UHGV virus genome: UHGV-1569641
From: a virus
Direction: 5' to 3' (one strand)
DNA: 11,942 bases
Made by a program: the position numbers and the translations under genes
In this document: piece by piece, positions 323 through 8,560 of the stretch
How positions within the stretch are numbered: position 1 is the stretch's first letter
Layout of the letters: the number at the start of each line of letters is the position of its first letter
The notes under the pieces: model-generated
What the model saw: the letters and a program-made list of their open reading frames with translations, nothing else
Databases searched by the model: none
Told to the model about the DNA's origin: nothing

Positions 323-1015
323 TTAATTGTGTCGCTTAAGGGTTTGTGACTGGCTGATTAAGACCTTTCCAAAGACCATAAACCGGTGTTCATTTTCGCT
401 GGTAATTCCCCATTCACGGTAAATCTGGTTATCAGAAATCACCAGTAGTTTGTCAGGTATCATTTGCAGTCGTTTGACATAAATTTTATCATCAAAACCA
501 AATACATAGATACCATCTCCATCAAACTGATTGATACTGACATCAACGAAGATGAGATCTCCTGGCTCAATGGTTGGACACATACTGTCCCCACGAACGT
601 TGATAACTTTAATGTGATTGGCTGGCCGTCCGCCAAACATCGATACAGCATTATCAGTTCTGTATTCAATGGCATGAATCACATCAATGACATCACCGCC
701 CTGGATAAGGCCATTTCCCGCACTGGCACTGACATCCAGCATTTCAATACGGAATACATCCTTCACCTGCGCAACATCCTCACTAATACTGTTTTTACAT
801 ACAGTATTACTTTTGACGTCTGAGGTAAAGAGATCAGCAATATCAACACCTAAGCTCCTGGCAATATTACTCAGGGCTTGTTCAGTGAATTGTTTCTGCT
901 TACCTGTTTCCAGGCGTGAGATATTCGCCGCATCCACTCCTATTGCTTCAGCGAGATCGGCGATTTTCATGTTCTTCGCCTGGCGAAGTTGTCTGACTCG
1001 GTTTCCTATGTTCAT
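323..1015 (-). CDS. cI: CI-type phage repressor (N-terminal XRE-family HTH, C-terminal S24 LexA-like autopeptidase domain)
   Basis: 230-aa ORF. N-terminus has an HTH (QAKNMKIADLAEAIGVDAANISRLETGK). C-terminus has a GDSMCPTIEPGDLIFVD Ser motif and a downstream YVKRL Lys, consistent with a Ser-Lys dyad, plus an Ala-Gly candidate cleavage site (SASAGNG). Divergent from cro. No Shine-Dalgarno upstream of the ATG. Confidence 0.9.
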   Translation of the reverse strand: MNIGNRVRQLRQAKNMKIADLAEAIGVDAANISRLETGKQKQFTEQALSNIARSLGVDIADLFTSDVKSNTVCKNSISEDVAQVKDVFRIEMLDVSASAGNGLIQGGDVIDVIHAIEYRTDNAVSMFGGRPANHIKVINVRGDSMCPTIEPGDLIFVDVSINQFDGDGIYVFGFDDKIYVKRLQMIPDKLLVISDNQIYREWGITSENEHRFMVFGKVLISQSQTLKRHN

Positions 1016-1112
1016 GCGTTTATTACATTTCTTTATTGCGCGTTAAGCAAATCAACTTGCGCAAAATATTTGCGTGAAATAATATGCTCATCACGCAATA
1101 TGTGGAGGTCAT
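1016..1112. promoter_or_regulatory. Right operator / divergent promoter region (OR, PR rightward, PRM leftward)
   Basis: Repeated TTGCGC / GCGCAA half-sites, including TTGCGCGTTAAGCAA at 1036-1050 and the palindrome CGCAAAATATTTGCG at 1060-1074. Candidate PR: -35 TTGCGC (1057-1062), 17-bp spacer, -10 TAATAT (1080-1085), then GGAGG (1104-1108) before the cro ATG. Candidate PRM on minus strand: -35 TTGCTT (complement of 1045-1050), 17-bp spacer, -10 TGTAAT (complement of 1022-1027), about 7 nt from the cI ATG. Confidence 0.55.
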
Positions 1113-1373
1113 ATGCAATCACCATTACGGAATGTGCGTAAGGCGCACGGATTTACTTTGCAGCATGTTGCTGCTGGCGTTCAGGTCAATCCAGCGACGC
1201 TGAGTCGTATTGAAAGACTGGAACAAATTCCATCTATCGATCTTGCAGAACGTCTGGCCAATTTTTTTAAGGGTGAAATCAGCGAAATGCAGATTCTTTA
1301 TCCGGCACGTTTTCAATCTAGCCAAAACCAGAATGGGTTTAAACCACAGGAACAGGAGGTAAGCCGTGGGTAA
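1113..1373 (+). CDS. cro: Cro-like HTH transcriptional regulator (Cro/CI-type, YdaS-like)
   Basis: 86-aa ORF, first rightward gene, divergent from the repressor. HTH motif TLQHVAAGVQVNPATLSRIERLE. GGAGG RBS upstream. Overlaps the next gene by 8 nt. Confidence 0.8.
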   Translation: MQSPLRNVRKAHGFTLQHVAAGVQVNPATLSRIERLEQIPSIDLAERLANFFKGEISEMQILYPARFQSSQNQNGFKPQEQEVSRG

Positions 1374-1923
1374 TCATCACTGGAAAGTGGAAAAACAGCC
1401 TGAGTGGTACGTGAAAGCTGTCAGAAAAACTATCGCGGCGTTGCCGGGGGGTTACGCTGAAGCTGCTGAGTGGCTGGATGTAACAGAGAACGCATTATTT
1501 AACCGCCTTCGTGCCGATGGCGATCAGATTTTCCCGCTGGGATGGGCAATGATTTTACAACGTGCTGGTGGCACTCACTTCATTGCCGACGCTGTGGCGC
1601 AGTCTGCAAATGGCGTCTTTGTGTCTCTTCCTGACGTCGAGGATGTGGACAATGCCGATATTAACCAGCGTTTACTGGAAGTCATTGAACAGATCGGCAG
1701 TTATTCAAAACAGATTCGTTCGGCAATCGAAGACGGTGTAGTGGAACCGCATGAGAAGACAGCAATTAACGACGAGCTGTACCTCTCAATTTCGAAGCTG
1801 CAGGAGCATGCAGCACTTGTCTACAAAATTTTTTGCGTTTCAGAAAGTAATGACGCCCGCGAGTGTGCAGCTCCGGGCGTCGTGGCGTCGATTGCTTCTG
1901 GTTGTGGAGAAACTAACGCATGA
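1366..1923 (+). CDS. CII-like phage regulatory protein (Phage_CP76 / YdaT-like family), GTG start
   Basis: 185-aa ORF in the cII position immediately after cro. AGGAGG RBS precedes the GTG at 1366. N-terminal region resembles CII/CP76-type regulators as recalled, not searched. Confidence 0.65.
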
Positions 1924-2258
1924 ACAGTTTAACAACACACTACCGTCGCTCGCAACTGATTGCGCTTCCTGTACCGGGTGGAAAAGCGAAGGTGGAGTAT
2001 TGCTATGCAGTAAATGTACCAGGTGACAGGGAAATTGTAACCCACAGCTTTGCTGAGTGGGCTGTGGGAGATTTCAACCGGCAGAAGGAGACAGTCCTTT
2101 GCGACAAGTTAACCGCTGGTTCAAAGATCACTACGGAGTGCCCGTCAGAGTCATTCGTTGGGAGCCGGAAACACAACGGGTTATCTACCTCCGTGAAGGC
2201 TATGAGCATGAGTGCTTCAGCCCGCTCGAACAGTTTCGTCGTAAATTCAGGGAAATAG
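1920..2258 (+). CDS. Hypothetical protein (uncertain; overlaps the next ORF in another frame)
   Basis: 112-aa ORF starting in an ATGA overlap with the upstream stop codon (translational-coupling geometry). The C-terminal half is Ser-rich and low-complexity and overlaps 2057-2258 of the DUF4222-like ORF in a different frame, so at most one is real over that stretch. Confidence 0.25.
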
Positions 2259-2278
2259 AGGTCGGTCATGAGCACTAA
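2057..2278 (+). CDS. Small DUF4222-like phage protein (true start probably TTG at 2099)
   Basis: Protein-like sequence [52 protein letters not shown] resembles small lambdoid DUF4222-type proteins (recollection). AAGGAG at 2085-2090 precedes the in-frame TTG at 2099. The GTG at 2057 is the track start. Confidence 0.5.
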
Positions 2279-3209
2279 ATTAACCGGCTATGTATGGGAT
2301 GGTTGCGCTGCGTCAGGCATGAAATTATCCAGCGTGGCAATTATGGCCCGCCTGGCTGATTTCAGTAATGACGAAGGTGTGTGCTGGCCATCAATTGAAA
2401 CTATTGCCCGTCAGATTGGCGCGGGGATGAGTACCGTCAGAACGGCTATCGCACGGCTGGAAGCAGAAGGCTGGTTAACGCGTAAGGCGCGTCGCCAGGG
2501 TAACCGCAATGCGTCGAATGTTTATCAGCTTAACGTTGCGAAGCTTCAGGCAGCGGCATTTTCTCAACTGTCAGATTCTGACCCGTCAAAATCTGACGCA
2601 TCAAAATCTGACACGTCAAAATTTGATGCGTCGAAATCTGGCAAAAAAGCGGGTTTTCACCCGTCAGAATCTGGCGGGGATCCGTCAGTAAAATCAAAAC
2701 ATGATCCGTCAGATAAAAAACCTTCTCGTCCGGACGCTTCGCAACCGGACACGCAGACGGCTGAACAGGATTTTTTAACTCGCCATCCTGATGCGGTTGT
2801 ATTCAGCCCTAAAAAGCGCCAGTGGGGAACGCAGGATGATTTGACCTGCGCACAGTGGCTCTGGAAAAAAATCATTGCCCTGTACGAGCAGGCCGCCGAA
2901 TGTGACGGCGAGGTGGTTCGTCCCAAAGAACCGAACTGGACAGCATGGGCAAACGAAATTCGCCTGATGTGTGTGCAGGATGGTCGTACTCACAAACAAA
3001 TCTGCGAGATGTACAGCCGCGTCAGCCGCGATCCGTTCTGGTGCCGTAACGTGCTCAGCCCGTCGAAGTTGCGGGAAAAATGGGATGAGCTTTCCCTGCG
3101 CTTATCGCCGTCCGTCAGCACGCACACAGAAAAACGTGAAGACCCGTACTTCAAAGCCAGTTACGACAACGTGGACTACAGCCAGATCCCGGCAGGATTC
3201 AGGGGGTGA
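2268..3209 (+). CDS. Replication initiation protein, lambda O-like (N-terminal wHTH, iteron-encoded linker, C-terminal domain of unclear family)
   Basis: 313-aa ORF. N-terminal HTH-like DNA-binding region (SIETIARQIGAGMSTVRTAIARLEAEGWL). The middle of the gene holds tandem iterons encoding a low-complexity SKSD-rich linker, the same architecture as lambda O and ori. Confidence 0.75.
   Translation: MSTKLTGYVWDGCAASGMKLSSVAIMARLADFSNDEGVCWPSIETIARQIGAGMSTVRTAIARLEAEGWLTRKARRQGNRNASNVYQLNVAKLQAAAFSQLSDSDPSKSDASKSDTSKFDASKSGKKAGFHPSESGGDPSVKSKHDPSDKKPSRPDASQPDTQTAEQDFLTRHPDAVVFSPKKRQWGTQDDLTCAQWLWKKIIALYEQAAECDGEVVRPKEPNWTAWANEIRLMCVQDGRTHKQICEMYSRVSRDPFWCRNVLSPSKLREKWDELSLRLSPSVSTHTEKREDPYFKASYDNVDYSQIPAGFRG
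2568..2720. repeat. Iteron array (putative phage origin of replication) inside the O-like gene
   Basis: Seen directly: 15-bp tandem units CCGTCAAAATCTGAC (2583-2597), GCATCAAAATCTGAC (2598-2612), ACGTCAAAATTTGAT (2613-2627), GCGTCGAAATCTGGC (2628-2642), preceded by TCAGATTCTGAC (2571-2582). Further CCGTCAGA-type copies at 2661-2675, 2682-2695 and around 2705-2720. Units contain an internal dyad (TCAGA-N-TCTGA); an A-rich stretch follows. Confidence 0.7.
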
Positions 3210-3211
3210 TC

Positions 3212-3700
3212 ATGAGTCTTTTGAATGACGTTCAGAAATTCATTGAAGCCCATCCGGGCTGTACTTCCGGAGACATTGCGGATGCTTTTGCAGGTTACTC
3301 ACGGCAGCGCGTTCTGCAGTCAGCAAGCAAGTTACGTCAGAGTGGGCGTGTGGCTCACCGTTGTGAAGGAGATACACGCAGACATTTCCCGCGCCTGACT
3401 GAGAGAGCGCAGGAGCCGGAACCACAATCTGTTCGTGAAACCAGACCTGTGCGCAATTTCTATGTCGGCACTAACGACCCCCGGGTGATTTTGTGCCTGA
3501 CCCGCCAGGCGGAAGAACTGGAGTCCAGGGGCTTATACCGTCGTGCTGCAACGGTGTGGATGGCGGCATTCCGTGAAAGCCACTCCCAGCCAGAACGAAA
3601 CAATTTTCTGGCGCGTCGTGAACGGTGTTTACGGAAAAGCAGTAAGCGGGCTGCATCAGGTGAAGAGTGGTACCTCTCAGGGAATTACGTGGGGGCTTAA
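3212..3700 (+). CDS. PerC-family-like transcriptional regulator (N-terminal HTH-like region plus C-terminal PerC-like motif)
   Basis: ATG at 3212 preceded by a G-rich RBS; the track start at 3206 is an upstream GTG. C-terminal ELESRGLYRRAATVWMAAF...RRERCLRK resembles the PerC/Pch motif as recalled, not searched. Confidence 0.5.
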   Translation: MSLLNDVQKFIEAHPGCTSGDIADAFAGYSRQRVLQSASKLRQSGRVAHRCEGDTRRHFPRLTERAQEPEPQSVRETRPVRNFYVGTNDPRVILCLTRQAEELESRGLYRRAATVWMAAFRESHSQPERNNFLARRERCLRKSSKRAASGEEWYLSGNYVGA

Positions 3701-4352
3701 TGAGTAATAAATATTGCCAGGCGCTGGTGGAGCTGCGGAACAAACCAGCCCATGAACTGAAGGCAGTGGGCGATCAGTGGCGCACGCCGGACAACATTTT
3801 CTGGGGAATTAACACCCTGTTTGGCCCGTTTGTTCTGGATCTGTTCACTGACGGTGATAACGCCAAATGTGCTGCGTATTACACGGCGGAAGACAACGCG
3901 CTGGCGCATGACTGGTCAGAACGCCTTGCGGAGCTTAAAGGTGCTGCCTTTGGTAATCCCCCATACAGCCGCGCCAGTCAGCATTAGGGGCAATACATCA
4001 CCGGCATGCGTTACATCATGAAGCATGCCAGTGCCATGCGTGATAAAGGCGGGCGCTATGTTTTCCTGATCAAAGCTGCCACCAGCAAGTGTGGTGGCCG
4101 GAAGATGCAGATCATATTGCTTTTATTCGCGGGCGTATTGGTTTTGAACTGCCTGCCTGGTTTATCCCGAAGGATGAGAAGCAGGTGCCGACAGGCGCTT
4201 TCTTCGCTGGTGCTATTGCTGTTTTCGACAAGACCTGGAAGGGACCGGCAATCAGCTACATCGGGCGCGATGAACTTGAGGCATGTGGTGAGGCCTTTCT
4301 GGCGCAGGTTCGCCAGCAGGCAGAAAAACTGGTCAGGGAGATGGCGGCATGA
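3700..4352 (+). pseudogene. Phage Dam-type N6-adenine DNA methyltransferase, disrupted by an in-frame amber codon and a 1-nt frameshift
   Basis: N-terminal part (from ATG 3700) carries the catalytic NPPY motif (FGNPPYS) and ends at TAG 3985-3987. The same frame resumes with MTase-like sequence (KGGRYVFLIKAATSK), then the homologous sequence continues in the -1 frame from about 4089 (WWPEDADHIAFIRGRIGF...) to the stop at 4352, which overlaps the next gene start in ATGA. Confidence 0.6.
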
Positions 4353-4675
4353 CGACGTTAACTCAATGCCAGCAGCAGGTGCTGGATATGCTGATTTCTT
4401 ATCAGAAAGAACGTGGCTTCCCGCCAACCAATCAGGAGGTGGCAACCATGCTGGGATACCGTTCAGTGAATGCAGCGGTGGAGCATCTTCGCGCACTGGA
4501 GAAAAAAGGCGTCATCACGATAAAGCGTGGCGTGGCCCGGGGCATCACGCTTCATACCGCGGTGAAGGACGACGACAGCGAGGCGGTCGGGATTATCCGC
4601 TCACTGCTTGCCGGTGAGGAAAACGCAAGGCTGCGTGCAGCCCACTGGTTACATGAGAGGGGCCTGAAAGTATGA
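4349..4675 (+). CDS. LexA N-terminal DNA-binding-domain-like protein (winged helix; no peptidase domain)
   Basis: 108-aa ORF. LTQCQQQVLDMLISYQKERGFPPTNQEVATMLGYRSVNAAVEHLRALEKKGVI resembles the LexA N-terminal DNA-binding domain (recollection). ATGA-coupled to both neighbouring genes. Confidence 0.6.
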   Translation: MTTLTQCQQQVLDMLISYQKERGFPPTNQEVATMLGYRSVNAAVEHLRALEKKGVITIKRGVARGITLHTAVKDDDSEAVGIIRSLLAGEENARLRAAHWLHERGLKV

Positions 4676-5061
4676 AGCTGATCCTGCCTTTTCCGCCCAG
4701 CGTGAACACGTACTGGCGACACCCCAACAAAGGGGCGTTTGCTGGTAAGAGCCTGATAAGCGCGGCGGGGCGAAAATTCCAGAGCGCGGCGTGCGCAGCA
4801 ATAGTTGAGCAGTTACGTCGTCTGCCGAAACCAACGTCGGCACCTGCTTCAGTGGAGATCGTGTTGTTTCCTCCGGATAACAGGATCCGCGATCTGGACA
4901 ACTATAACAAGGCGCTGTTTGACGCCCTGACCCACGCGGGGGTGTGGGAAGACGACAGTCAGGTGAAAAGAATGCTGGTGGAGTGGGGACCGGTTATCCC
5001 GGAAGGGAAGGTCGAGATCACTATCAGTAAGTACGAGAAAACGGCGGGTGCAGCTGCCTGA
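4672..5061 (+). CDS. rusA: RusA-family Holliday junction resolvase
   Basis: 129-aa ORF with RusA-like features (PPSVNTYWRH near the N-terminus, DLDNYNKALFDALT acidic motif). Typical position in the lambdoid nin region. Confidence 0.8.
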   Translation: MKLILPFPPSVNTYWRHPNKGAFAGKSLISAAGRKFQSAACAAIVEQLRRLPKPTSAPASVEIVLFPPDNRIRDLDNYNKALFDALTHAGVWEDDSQVKRMLVEWGPVIPEGKVEITISKYEKTAGAAA

Positions 5062-6887: not shown

Positions 6888-6904
6888 TTTTGTGGAGAAA
6901 GTTG

Positions 6905-7288
6905 ATGCGTGATATTCAGATGGTTCTTGAGCGTTGGGGAGCGTGGGCGGCTAATAATCATGAAGATGTGACCTGGTCGTCCATTGCCGCCGGTTTTAAG
7001 GGATTAATTCCTTCAAAAGTAAAATCTCGCCCGCAATGTTGTGACGATGACGCGATGATCATTTGCGGGTGCATGGCCCGTCTGAAAAAGAACAACAGCG
7101 ATTTGCACGATTTATTAGTAGATTATTATGTAGTCGGTATGACATTCATGTCACTGGCAGGTAAGCATTGCTGCTCTGATGGTTATATCGGGAAAAGGTT
7201 ACAAAAAGCTGAGGGCATAATTGAAGGGATGTTAATGGCATTAGATATCCGGTTAGAGATGGATATCGTTGTTAATAACTCTAATTAA
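6905..7288 (+). CDS. Late-gene antitermination protein Q (Q21/Q82-type)
   Basis: 127 aa from the ATG at 6905 (GGAGAAAG RBS); the track start at 6890 is an upstream TTG. Cys-rich zinc-binding-like motifs ([20 protein letters not shown]). Located just upstream of the late region. Confidence 0.8.
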
Positions 7289-7477: not shown

Positions 7478-8560
7478 TTAGAACTGGTAAACCAGACCTA
7501 CAGCAACGATGTCATCAGTATCAATACCAGCTGTTTTGGTAAACTTACTATCGTCAATTAAGTTGATTTTGTAATCAACAAAAGTGGACATGTTTTTATT
7601 AAAGTAGTAAGTAGCACCGACATCGACATACTTGACTAAGTCTCGGTCACCATGAACACCAAGGTCTTTACCTTTTGACTGAAGGTAAGCAACAGATGGG
7701 CGCAGACCGAAGTCAAACTGATATTGTGCTACTGCTTCAAAGTTTTGTGCTTTGTTTGCAATATGGTTATTACCAAAAACGGTCATATTCTGAGTTTCAG
7801 AATATGTGGTAGCCAGATAGATATTGTTCGCATCATATTTCAGGCCTGCAGCCCATACTTCCGCATTTTTGCCGGAGGCATTGAATTTGCTCTTACCATA
7901 GGCGACCTGACCGTCAGTGCGATCTGATTTAGCATAGGTTGCACCCACGCCGAATCCTTCATACTCATAAGTAGTGGAGAAACCGAAACCATCACCATTG
8001 GCTTCAGTTACGTCAGTGCGGTCATTTTTACCCTGATACTGAGCAGCAAAGTTCAGGCCATCGACCAGACCAAAGAAGTCGTTGTTACGATAAGTTGCAA
8101 CACCAGTAGTGCGACCAGTCATGAACACATCTGTTTGGGTCCAGGTATCACCACCGAATTCTGGCAGGACGTCAGTCCACGCACCGATGTCGTATGCTAC
8201 ACCGTAGTTACGGCCGTAATCGATTGAGCCGTAATCACCAAATTTCAGGCCTGCAAATGCAAGACGGGTTTTGTCTTTGGAAGAACCTTGAGATTCAGCG
8301 CGGTTGCCTTTGAATTCATATTCCCACTGACCGAAACCAGTCAGTTGATCGTTGATTTGGGTTTCACCTTTGAAGCCAAGACGGGCATAAGTAGTATCAC
8401 CATCATCTGCATCATTAGAGGAGAAGTAGTGCTTAGCATTAACTTTCCCGTACAGATCCAGCTTGTTACTGTCTTTATTATAAATTTCAGCTGCCTGAGC
8501 AGACATCGCCATCAGTACTGATGCAGCTACAGCAGAAATTGCCACTGTTAATTTTTTCAT
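7478..8560 (-). CDS. nmpC: Outer-membrane general porin, NmpC / Lc / OmpD-type (prophage-encoded, lysogenic-conversion porin)
   Basis: 360-aa ORF with signal peptide ([29 protein letters not shown]), porin motifs ([19 protein letters not shown]) and C-terminal VYQF. Opposite orientation to the flanking phage genes; appears intact. Confidence 0.9.

Follow-up and report, generated by a model that had tools for sequence, protein, structure and literature searches.

The stretch of DNA considered here, 11,942 nucleotides of the virus genome UHGV-1569641 (the window, always taken at its full length), comes from a lambda-like E. coli prophage, of which it represents the early-right and lysis region, and our concern is with an O-like initiator gene that carries an array of repeats, or iterons, in the middle of its open reading frame (ORF). 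The encoded protein matches PHROG 391 ('replication initiation O-like') over its full length (5.5e-135) and the gene order, cI, cro, cII, initiator, is that of lambda. Unlike lambda, there is no P gene after the initiator: the position of P is occupied by a PerC-like gene, yfdN, which is not a loader, and lambda P, DnaC, DnaB and P22 gp12 are without a match among the ORFs of the window. The interval 2268-3209 very probably comprises a phage origin together with its initiator, and this reading is sound and describes an ordinary kind of replicon, one of the lambda kind, with the origin inside O, in which P does not follow. The less ordinary feature is the C-terminal tail of the initiator, which is shared with the host primosome adaptor DnaT. 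In the explanation that we favour, with modest confidence, a lambda-like O-some would form at the iterons and recruit host DnaB-DnaC by way of this tail.

The iteron unit is a 13-bp dyad, GTCARAWTCTGAC, of which five copies stand in tandem, the one at 2570 being a perfect palindrome; Tandem Repeats Finder renders the array as a 15-bp period with 4.3 copies and 81% matches at 2577-2640. The first-pass annotation of this DNA rightly recognised tandem 15-bp dyad iterons inside the gene but gave their range as 2583-2642, whereas the array starts at 2570, 13 bp earlier. A sixth iteron stands apart from the five (Table 1), and the stretch matching it, CCGTCAGAATCTGG, is kept among relatives. Searching the whole 11.9-kb window on both strands for the dyad with at most two mismatches gave 13 strand-matches, against 1.08 expected (none of 200 shuffles reaches 13), with a single match outside the initiator gene. 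For the half-site CCGTCAG there are 11 occurrences where 1.1 would be expected, seven of them on the + strand within 2142-3118.

Beyond the sixth iteron lie two A-rich direct units (GC 0.42-0.45, AT skew +0.2 to +0.33). This DNA, with both of its GATC sites, is conserved between groups of different iteron specificity; 2679-2726 is, tentatively, a candidate unwinding region. The aspartate codon is GAT at the two GATC sites but GAC within the iterons. Most relatives (L007, L022-L073 in the census of loci described below) have an adenine methyltransferase gene (Dam, D12 class or MT-A70) no more than one or two genes away from the initiator. The conserved GATC pair and these nearby genes together suggest an origin under methylation- or SeqA-type control. 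Between iterons 5 and 6 (2650-2663) the minus strand has a small GC hairpin with a T-run after it (CGGGTGAAAACCCG CTTTTTTG), probably due to chance, since relatives do not keep the stem.

The iterons fall in mid-ORF, where they code for an SKSD-rich stretch of protein, and the choice of codons there is peculiar. The repeat codons of 51 distinct related genes, drawn from different enterobacterial species, were compared with the rest of the same genes: the first serine of the repeat is TCA in 165 of 172 cases (96%, against 16% elsewhere), lysine is AAA in all 135 (60% elsewhere), the second serine is TCT in 118 of 130 (91%, against 8.5%) and aspartate is GAC in 78% (50% elsewhere). Such near-fixed synonymous codons speak for selection on the DNA. 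The iterons also change together with the DNA-binding domain. A recognition helix STVRTAI pairs with the iteron TCAAAATCTGAC, STVIGLI or STVITLI with GTCCAGAWTCTGGAC-type units and KSxTVxAAI with GTCAA-N3-TTGAC, while in initiators with other N-terminal domains the equivalent place has repeats whose period is 23 or 24 bp. In a scan of IMG/VR, which gave near-identical copies only, 80 contigs have a C-terminus that is 97-100% identical; among them protein lengths of 308, 313, 318 and 323 amino acids (aa) correspond to 5, 6, 7 and 8 iteron sites, that is, to 15-bp steps, and in 14 of the 80 an unrelated N-terminal domain sits on the same C-terminus. In the wider family the linker ranges from almost no repeat to approximately nine repeats. 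The placement of the repeats agrees with the annotated origins of lambda and P22. That the repeats are origin iterons within an O-like gene, as had been proposed from the first reading of this DNA, is thus upheld by the homology to lambda O, by selection on the DNA and by the concerted change of iterons and DNA-binding domain; that they lie in mid-gene and code for an SKSD-rich linker, as at lambda ori, agrees with the lambda-like placement and with the predicted disorder of the encoded segment.

The initiator can be divided into four parts. Its N-terminal domain is modelled by AlphaFold2 as helices with a beta wing; a Foldseek comparison of the full model with the PDB yields matches to the winged helix alone (MarR-type and other winged-helix proteins), and a PDB sequence search with the family profile yields winged-helix regulators only. 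Residues 102-156, the linker, are encoded by the origin and predicted to be disordered (AlphaFold2; predicted local distance difference test, pLDDT, <50). The helical domain that follows (residues ~165-280) is homologous to the C-terminal domain of lambda O (phmmer, E 5.8e-23, and alignment), through which lambda O contacts P; Pfam and NCBIfam searches of the C-terminal half give no family match. The disordered tail completes the protein. The approximately 190-aa C-terminal domain to which the first-pass annotation would have allowed an unrecognised function therefore dissolves into the origin-encoded linker, a homologue of the lambda O C-terminal domain and the DnaT-like tail. Most lambda-O-type C-terminal domains that bear a GFRG tail contain an insertion of 10 residues (...YEQAAExDGExVRP...) that is absent from lambda O, with exceptions to the pairing of insertion and tail type in both directions (P0160, L012).

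Table 1. Features of the initiator gene and its surroundings in the window (positions of the 11,942-nucleotide stretch)
Feature	Position	Strand	Remarks
O-like initiator gene, 313 aa, origin inside	2268-3209	+	Full-length relative of K-12 CPS-53 yfdO
N-terminal winged-helix DNA-binding domain, aa 1-98	2268-2561	+	Pfam HTH_36 4.3e-11; weak DnaD_N
Five tandem iterons GTCARAWTCTGAC	2570-2642		Starts 2570, 2585, 2600, 2615, 2630; 15-bp spacing
Sixth, separate iteron GTCAGAATCTGGC	2663-2675		One mismatch to dyad, either strand
Two 24-bp A-rich direct units, each opening GATCCGTCAG	2679-2726		GATC at 2679 and 2703
Lambda-O-type C-terminal helical domain, aa ~166-278	2763-3101	+	
Disordered C-terminal tail, aa 279-313	3102-3206	+	Last nine residues SQIPAGFRG at 3180-3206
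cI-like repressor	323-1015	-	
cro	1113-1373		
cII/YmfL	1366-1923		
DUF4222 gene upstream of initiator	2057-2278	+	Overlaps initiator start by 11 nt; PHROG 1343; RefSeq annotation
PerC-like yfdN gene	3206-3700	+	Pfam PerC 7.5e-9; PHROG 1324 'transcriptional activator'
Damaged dam gene	3667-4352		
LexA DNA-binding domain alone	4349-4675		
RusA	4672-5061		Followed by KilA-N and DUF968 genes
Q antiterminator	6890-7288		
Porin gene	7478-8560	-	Followed by holin, lysozyme and Rz

In its general anatomy this is lambda O and ori-lambda over again: an origin in the middle of the initiator gene, dyad iterons and then an A/T-richer stretch, all coding for an inter-domain linker. The differences lie in the parts. 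The N-terminal domain belongs to Pfam HTH_36, whereas that of lambda O is Phage_rep_O, another winged-helix family; the iterons are 13 bp long at 15-bp spacing, whereas lambda has four 18-bp sites; and the tail is DnaT-like, whereas that of lambda O is LDLTNTDWIYGVDL. Salmonella phage P22 (gp18/gp12) and other lambda-like modules likewise have an O-like initiator with an internal origin, but P22 has its own DnaB-type helicase, gp12, and an initiator with another C-terminal domain and tail; the window phage brings no helicase. Bacillus subtilis DnaD and SPP1 G39P offer a further possible likeness, with a winged-helix N-terminal domain (the weak DnaD_N match), a small helical C-terminal domain and a functional C-terminal tail, and the initiator matches PHROG 2514 ('DnaD-like helicase loader') at 3e-29. 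In contrast, structural scores are low, membership is not seen at the sequence level and those Gram-positive systems have DnaI-type or G39P loaders.

The initiator ends ...DYSQIPAGFRG and E. coli K-12 DnaT (translated from the genome) ends ...EPDSQIPPGFRG, so that eight of nine residues at the exact C-termini are identical (SQIPAGFRG and SQIPPGFRG; BLASTP). When the two proteins are compared with hhalign, the last 34 columns align (E 5e-5) and nothing else does: the three-helix DNA-binding domain of DnaT (PF17948) is undetectable in the initiator, and neither BLASTP nor hhalign finds any similarity outside the tail to the DnaT N-terminal oligomerisation domain or its acidic PriB-binding linker. 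The tail is therefore held in common with DnaT without making the initiator a member of the DnaT family. Within it P308, G310, F311 and R312 do not vary among 22 homologues (57-99% identity), although the approximately 25 residues before them do. DnaT orthologues keep KRD(I/V)NxxSEPDxxIPxGFRG, and some phage initiator tails match this entire 20-residue stretch (for example, RERDINAISRPDTTIPPGFRG). The GFRG tail is found on three unrelated C-terminal domains, those of lambda O, of Pfam Phg_2220_C and of the mEp460 type. The initiator of mEp460 has a different DNA-binding domain, different iterons and the third kind of C-terminal domain, yet over its last 24 aa it is identical to the window protein, which leaves the tail as the one feature that is constant in these loader-less initiators. 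One protein of the family (P0185) has the tail motif twice (...YSIPKGFRGHDENEGYRGFG...ETEIPHGFRG).

The company that the tail keeps was surveyed at 77 loci, one genome per species, by comparing all ORFs within ±6 kb of the initiator with lambda P, DnaC, DnaB and P22 gp12. At the 53 loci with a GFRG tail (C-terminal domains of lambda-O type in 13, Phg_2220_C in 38, unassigned in two) there is not one P gene and not one DnaB gene; a DnaC homologue lies directly downstream at two (L058, L067) and the remaining 51 are loader-less. At L067 the initiator and dnaC are separated by 3 bp, which is also the dnaT-dnaC gap in K-12. By comparison, all nine loci with a lambda-O-type or related non-GFRG tail, which are divided between two different C-terminal domains, have a P homologue directly downstream. 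Eight of these nine tails are clearly of a W..W form (such as HWNSPEAWENTL or DWNNTDWADGL; lambda O itself ends LDLTNTDWIYGVDL), and the ninth (L074) reads DCEEWFCT and goes with a weak P match (E 8.6e-7). One of the P-associated loci, L049, has a Phg_2220_C domain and a group-A DNA-binding domain; since it shares both with loader-less relatives, it differs from them essentially by its tail.

Two further tail types turned up in the census. At L059 (3777-4679) the initiator has an SSB-like tip (...DIPEGFNQ...GGTDDDFI) and a DnaC homologue comes next. A third type, ...PEFAMSRWNxIWK...QGG.AA on an extension of approximately 70 aa, is found at L028, L043, L047, L053, L056 and L071 (and in protein P0139); these six loci have no P, DnaC or DnaB gene within the ±6 kb surveyed, and this tail may be another loader-less solution. 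A 90%-identity cluster, P0127, mixes 323-aa initiators with 246-aa DnaC-like ATPases, which is probably a clustering artefact stemming from read-through or fused gene calls at initiator-dnaC junctions.

The absence of a loader does not seem to be a matter of where the window ends. Six-frame searches of the complete phages SfII and mEp460 give no P, DnaC, DnaB or gp12 match, which answers, for these two phages, the objection, raised with the original suggestion, that a loader might lie elsewhere in the prophage. That the next gene is PerC-like, with no P/DnaC-type loader to follow the initiator, had also been seen correctly. Judged by homology, the loader-less state of the phage replicon appears to be real. 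The genes that lie between GFRG-tail initiators and Q encode PerC-like proteins, Dam and Dcm methyltransferases, DUF977, a LexA DNA-binding domain with RusA, KilA-N/ANT and DUF968; none is common to all GFRG-tail loci and none is loader-like.

These features can be assembled into a mechanism. Dimers of the N-terminal winged-helix domain would bind the five or six dyad iterons to make a complex resembling the lambda O-some, as anatomy and homology imply, and this complex might then destabilise the neighbouring A-rich, GATC-bearing segment. Since homology searches find no phage-encoded P, DnaC or DnaB, the replicative helicase would be host DnaB, brought by host DnaC. The most likely signal for this delivery is the C-terminal tail, ...IPxGFRG, which is short and disordered; since the host primosome adaptor DnaT has this tail too, the initiator would dock to the partner, whichever it is, of the DnaT tail. 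Where relatives have a lambda-O-type tail, the same role would fall to a phage P protein from the gene immediately downstream. Direct recruitment of host DnaB/DnaC is plausible on these grounds, backed as it is by the strong association of tail type with loader gene, and the new, testable element is the probable part of the DnaT-type tail as a helicase-delivery signal.

The steps of this proposal do not all command the same confidence. That the tail mediates recruitment of some host replication partner seems to us somewhat the better bet. That the partner is DnaC or DnaB-DnaC is, taken over all possibilities, a tentative suggestion. Should the tail indeed be a docking signal, then the chances that DnaC or the DnaB-DnaC complex is its partner would be about even, those of PriA would be distinctly smaller and those of another partner smaller still. 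DnaC or DnaB-DnaC is preferred because DnaC homologues are the only loaders found beside GFRG tails, because the 3-bp gap at L067 mirrors the dnaT-dnaC operon of K-12 and because lambda-type tails accompany P.

The resemblance to DnaT itself is partial. DnaT has the same motif at its very end; two relatives have a dnaC homologue after the tail-bearing gene, just as dnaC comes after dnaT; and some annotation pipelines already label these phage proteins 'primosomal protein (I)'. In contrast, the window initiator has neither DnaT's N-terminal domain nor a detectable PF17948 domain, and it is predicted to bind specific origin duplex DNA, whereas PriA and PriB bring DnaT to forks. The way in which DnaB/DnaC is recruited by DnaT and the preprimosome is described as unknown (PMC13377028).

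Several considerations weigh against the explanation that we favour. With no globular DnaT domain detectable, the likeness comes down to a short motif, which could have another role. The 2026 preprimosome paper proposes DnaT's N-terminal domain as what recruits DnaB/DnaC and has no discussion of the tail, residues 154-179 (PMC13377028). The loader searches were made by single-sequence phmmer and Pfam on cluster representatives, and a novel loader fold would escape them. The loci belong to related prophages and are incompletely independent of one another, a problem that their mosaic structure lessens. Lastly, the A-rich segment is just moderately AT-rich (GC 0.42-0.45) for a region of unwinding.

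PriA is the main alternative as partner of the tail. In this account, which we think unlikely, the initiator does no more than mark and open the origin, its tail recruits PriA or PriA-PriB, and the PriA-PriB-DnaT restart primosome loads DnaB, as at phiX174 and ColE1 sites. The DDDFI tip of the relative at L059 favours it, since the SSB tip is a PriA-binding signal. Phages and plasmids with PriA-dependent starts exist (PMC5778457), and the 2026 cryo-electron microscopy study of the preprimosome shows the C-terminal domain of DnaT docking on PriA (PMC13377028). The contact described there, however, is made by the globular DnaT C-terminal domain, which the initiator does not have. Recruitment of PriA would also leave unexplained why the loaders that do occur beside GFRG tails are only DnaC homologues in a dnaT-dnaC-like arrangement.

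It is improbable that a non-homologous loader is hidden in another phage gene (the PerC-like YfdN, DUF4222, DUF968 or KilA-N), with the tail irrelevant to helicase loading. YfdN would be a candidate, for its gene overlaps the initiator stop codon, as P does in lambda, and the N-terminal part of its product is winged-helix-like with a faint Ren/MarR signal; several early genes have no known function. The census, however, speaks against such a division of labour: GFRG-tail loci have no common downstream gene, a PerC-like gene adjoins only about a third of these initiators (elsewhere DUF977, DUF1627 or a methyltransferase gene comes directly after), and no downstream gene has an ATPase or helicase-binding signature.

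We give similarly little credence to the notion that the GFRG tail, in common with that of DnaT, serves as a signal for regulation or turnover, for instance as a tag for a protease or chaperone, and that the lambda-O-type C-terminal domain is what captures DnaB-DnaC. There is precedent in the instability of lambda O, a ClpXP substrate, and in the frequency with which short terminal motifs serve as degrons, and the lambda-O-type domain is kept despite the absence of P. One would not, however, expect a degron to keep P genes away (0 of 53 against 9 of 9) or to sit on three unrelated C-terminal domains in exactly the phages that have no loader.

Recruitment of DnaB-DnaC at the phage origin by host DnaA, as in the iteron plasmids pSC101, P1, F and RK2, has in its favour that DnaA-assisted loading is the general precedent for iteron replicons without a loader of their own. 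It was rejected as very improbable because DnaA boxes are at chance level in the window (27 matches, 25.3 expected), with none in or beside the iteron array (the nearest box with one mismatch is at 2860). Lastly, that the repeats merely code for a flexible Ser/Lys/Asp linker and form no origin is hardly credible: the peptide is of low complexity and predicted to be disordered, but its near-fixed synonymous codons, the dyad symmetry, the iteron changes that track the DNA-binding domain and a position equal to that of the lambda and P22 origins all contradict it.

If recruitment of DnaB-DnaC through the tail is taken one step further, initiator tails can be regarded as a portable docking code, in which the lambda-O-type (...DW..G.) docks P and ...IPxGFRG docks a DnaC-type loader of host or phage. 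We put this forward as a speculation. If it were true, the DnaT tail would be the missing link for the handover of DnaB-DnaC from the PriA-PriB-DnaT preprimosome, and dnaT-dnaC might be descended from, or have exchanged parts with, a phage initiator-loader pair. Even short of that, a tail shared with DnaT and in strict either-or relation with P bears on how DnaT recruits DnaB-DnaC in E. coli replication restart. Sharing of the tail could also explain host range and interference among prophages competing for one host partner.

A DnaT-like end on an O-like protein is not unheard of. DopC, a domesticated chromosomal protein with an O-like N-terminal domain of HTH_36 type and the DnaT C-terminal motif, has been described by Brezellec et al. 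in 2017, who have already drawn the parallel between O/P, DopC/DopE and DnaT/DnaC; unlike the window protein, DopC is chromosomal, has no iterons, is paired with the P-like DopE and is not considered an initiator (PMC5509034). In our literature searches we found no account of a likeness confined to the terminal motif, of its moving between unrelated C-terminal domains or of mutual exclusion with P, and no explanation of helicase loading in these phages, which have no loader gene. Searches on 'initiator-solo', the PGFRG/IPPGF motif and the function of the DnaT tail returned nothing relevant. Weigel and Seitz (2006) reportedly defined an 'initiator-solo' class of phage replication modules. The papers on Stx 'Eru' describe other replication modules.

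In E. coli this module ranks with the commonest prophage replicons, and serotype-converting Shigella phages and some Stx2a phages replicate by means of it too. The initiator gene is matched in 3357 of 5426 complete genomes, with a copy covering at least 80% of it in 1576 of the 5426, and copies that are 100% identical occur in many E. coli genomes. The replication module is found at 95-97% identity in viable phages, namely SfII, mEp460 (in part), PhiR49_1, Kati and several Stx2a phages; SfII is known to be inducible and infective (PMC3772137). The gene goes under various names, being a 'helix-turn-helix domain-containing protein' in RefSeq and 'replication protein O' or 'primosomal protein' in phage records.

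The remainder of the window has some features of its own. A scan of 1000-3800 for promoters and terminators yielded nothing exceeding chance, and for the yfdN-like gene a start at the ATG at 3212 is more likely than one at 3206. The phage dam gene, which encodes an N6-adenine methyltransferase, has become a pseudogene in this DNA: set against dam of SfII, it shows a stop codon near 3985-3987 (GAG to TAG) and the loss of 1 bp near 4088, and two ORFs remain (3667-3987 and 4089-4352). Because this gene is broken the prophage is probably in decay, its initiator gene nonetheless being intact. The ORF for a LexA DNA-binding domain overlaps RusA just downstream, and at L034 (9307-9942) the two form a single fused ORF. 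The porin gene between Q and holin encodes an OmpC/NmpC-type protein of 360 aa with a signal peptide; it is placed like nmpC in DLP12, is annotated 'OmpD' in PhiR49_1 and looks like a lysogenic-conversion gene acquired by the phage (a 'moron').

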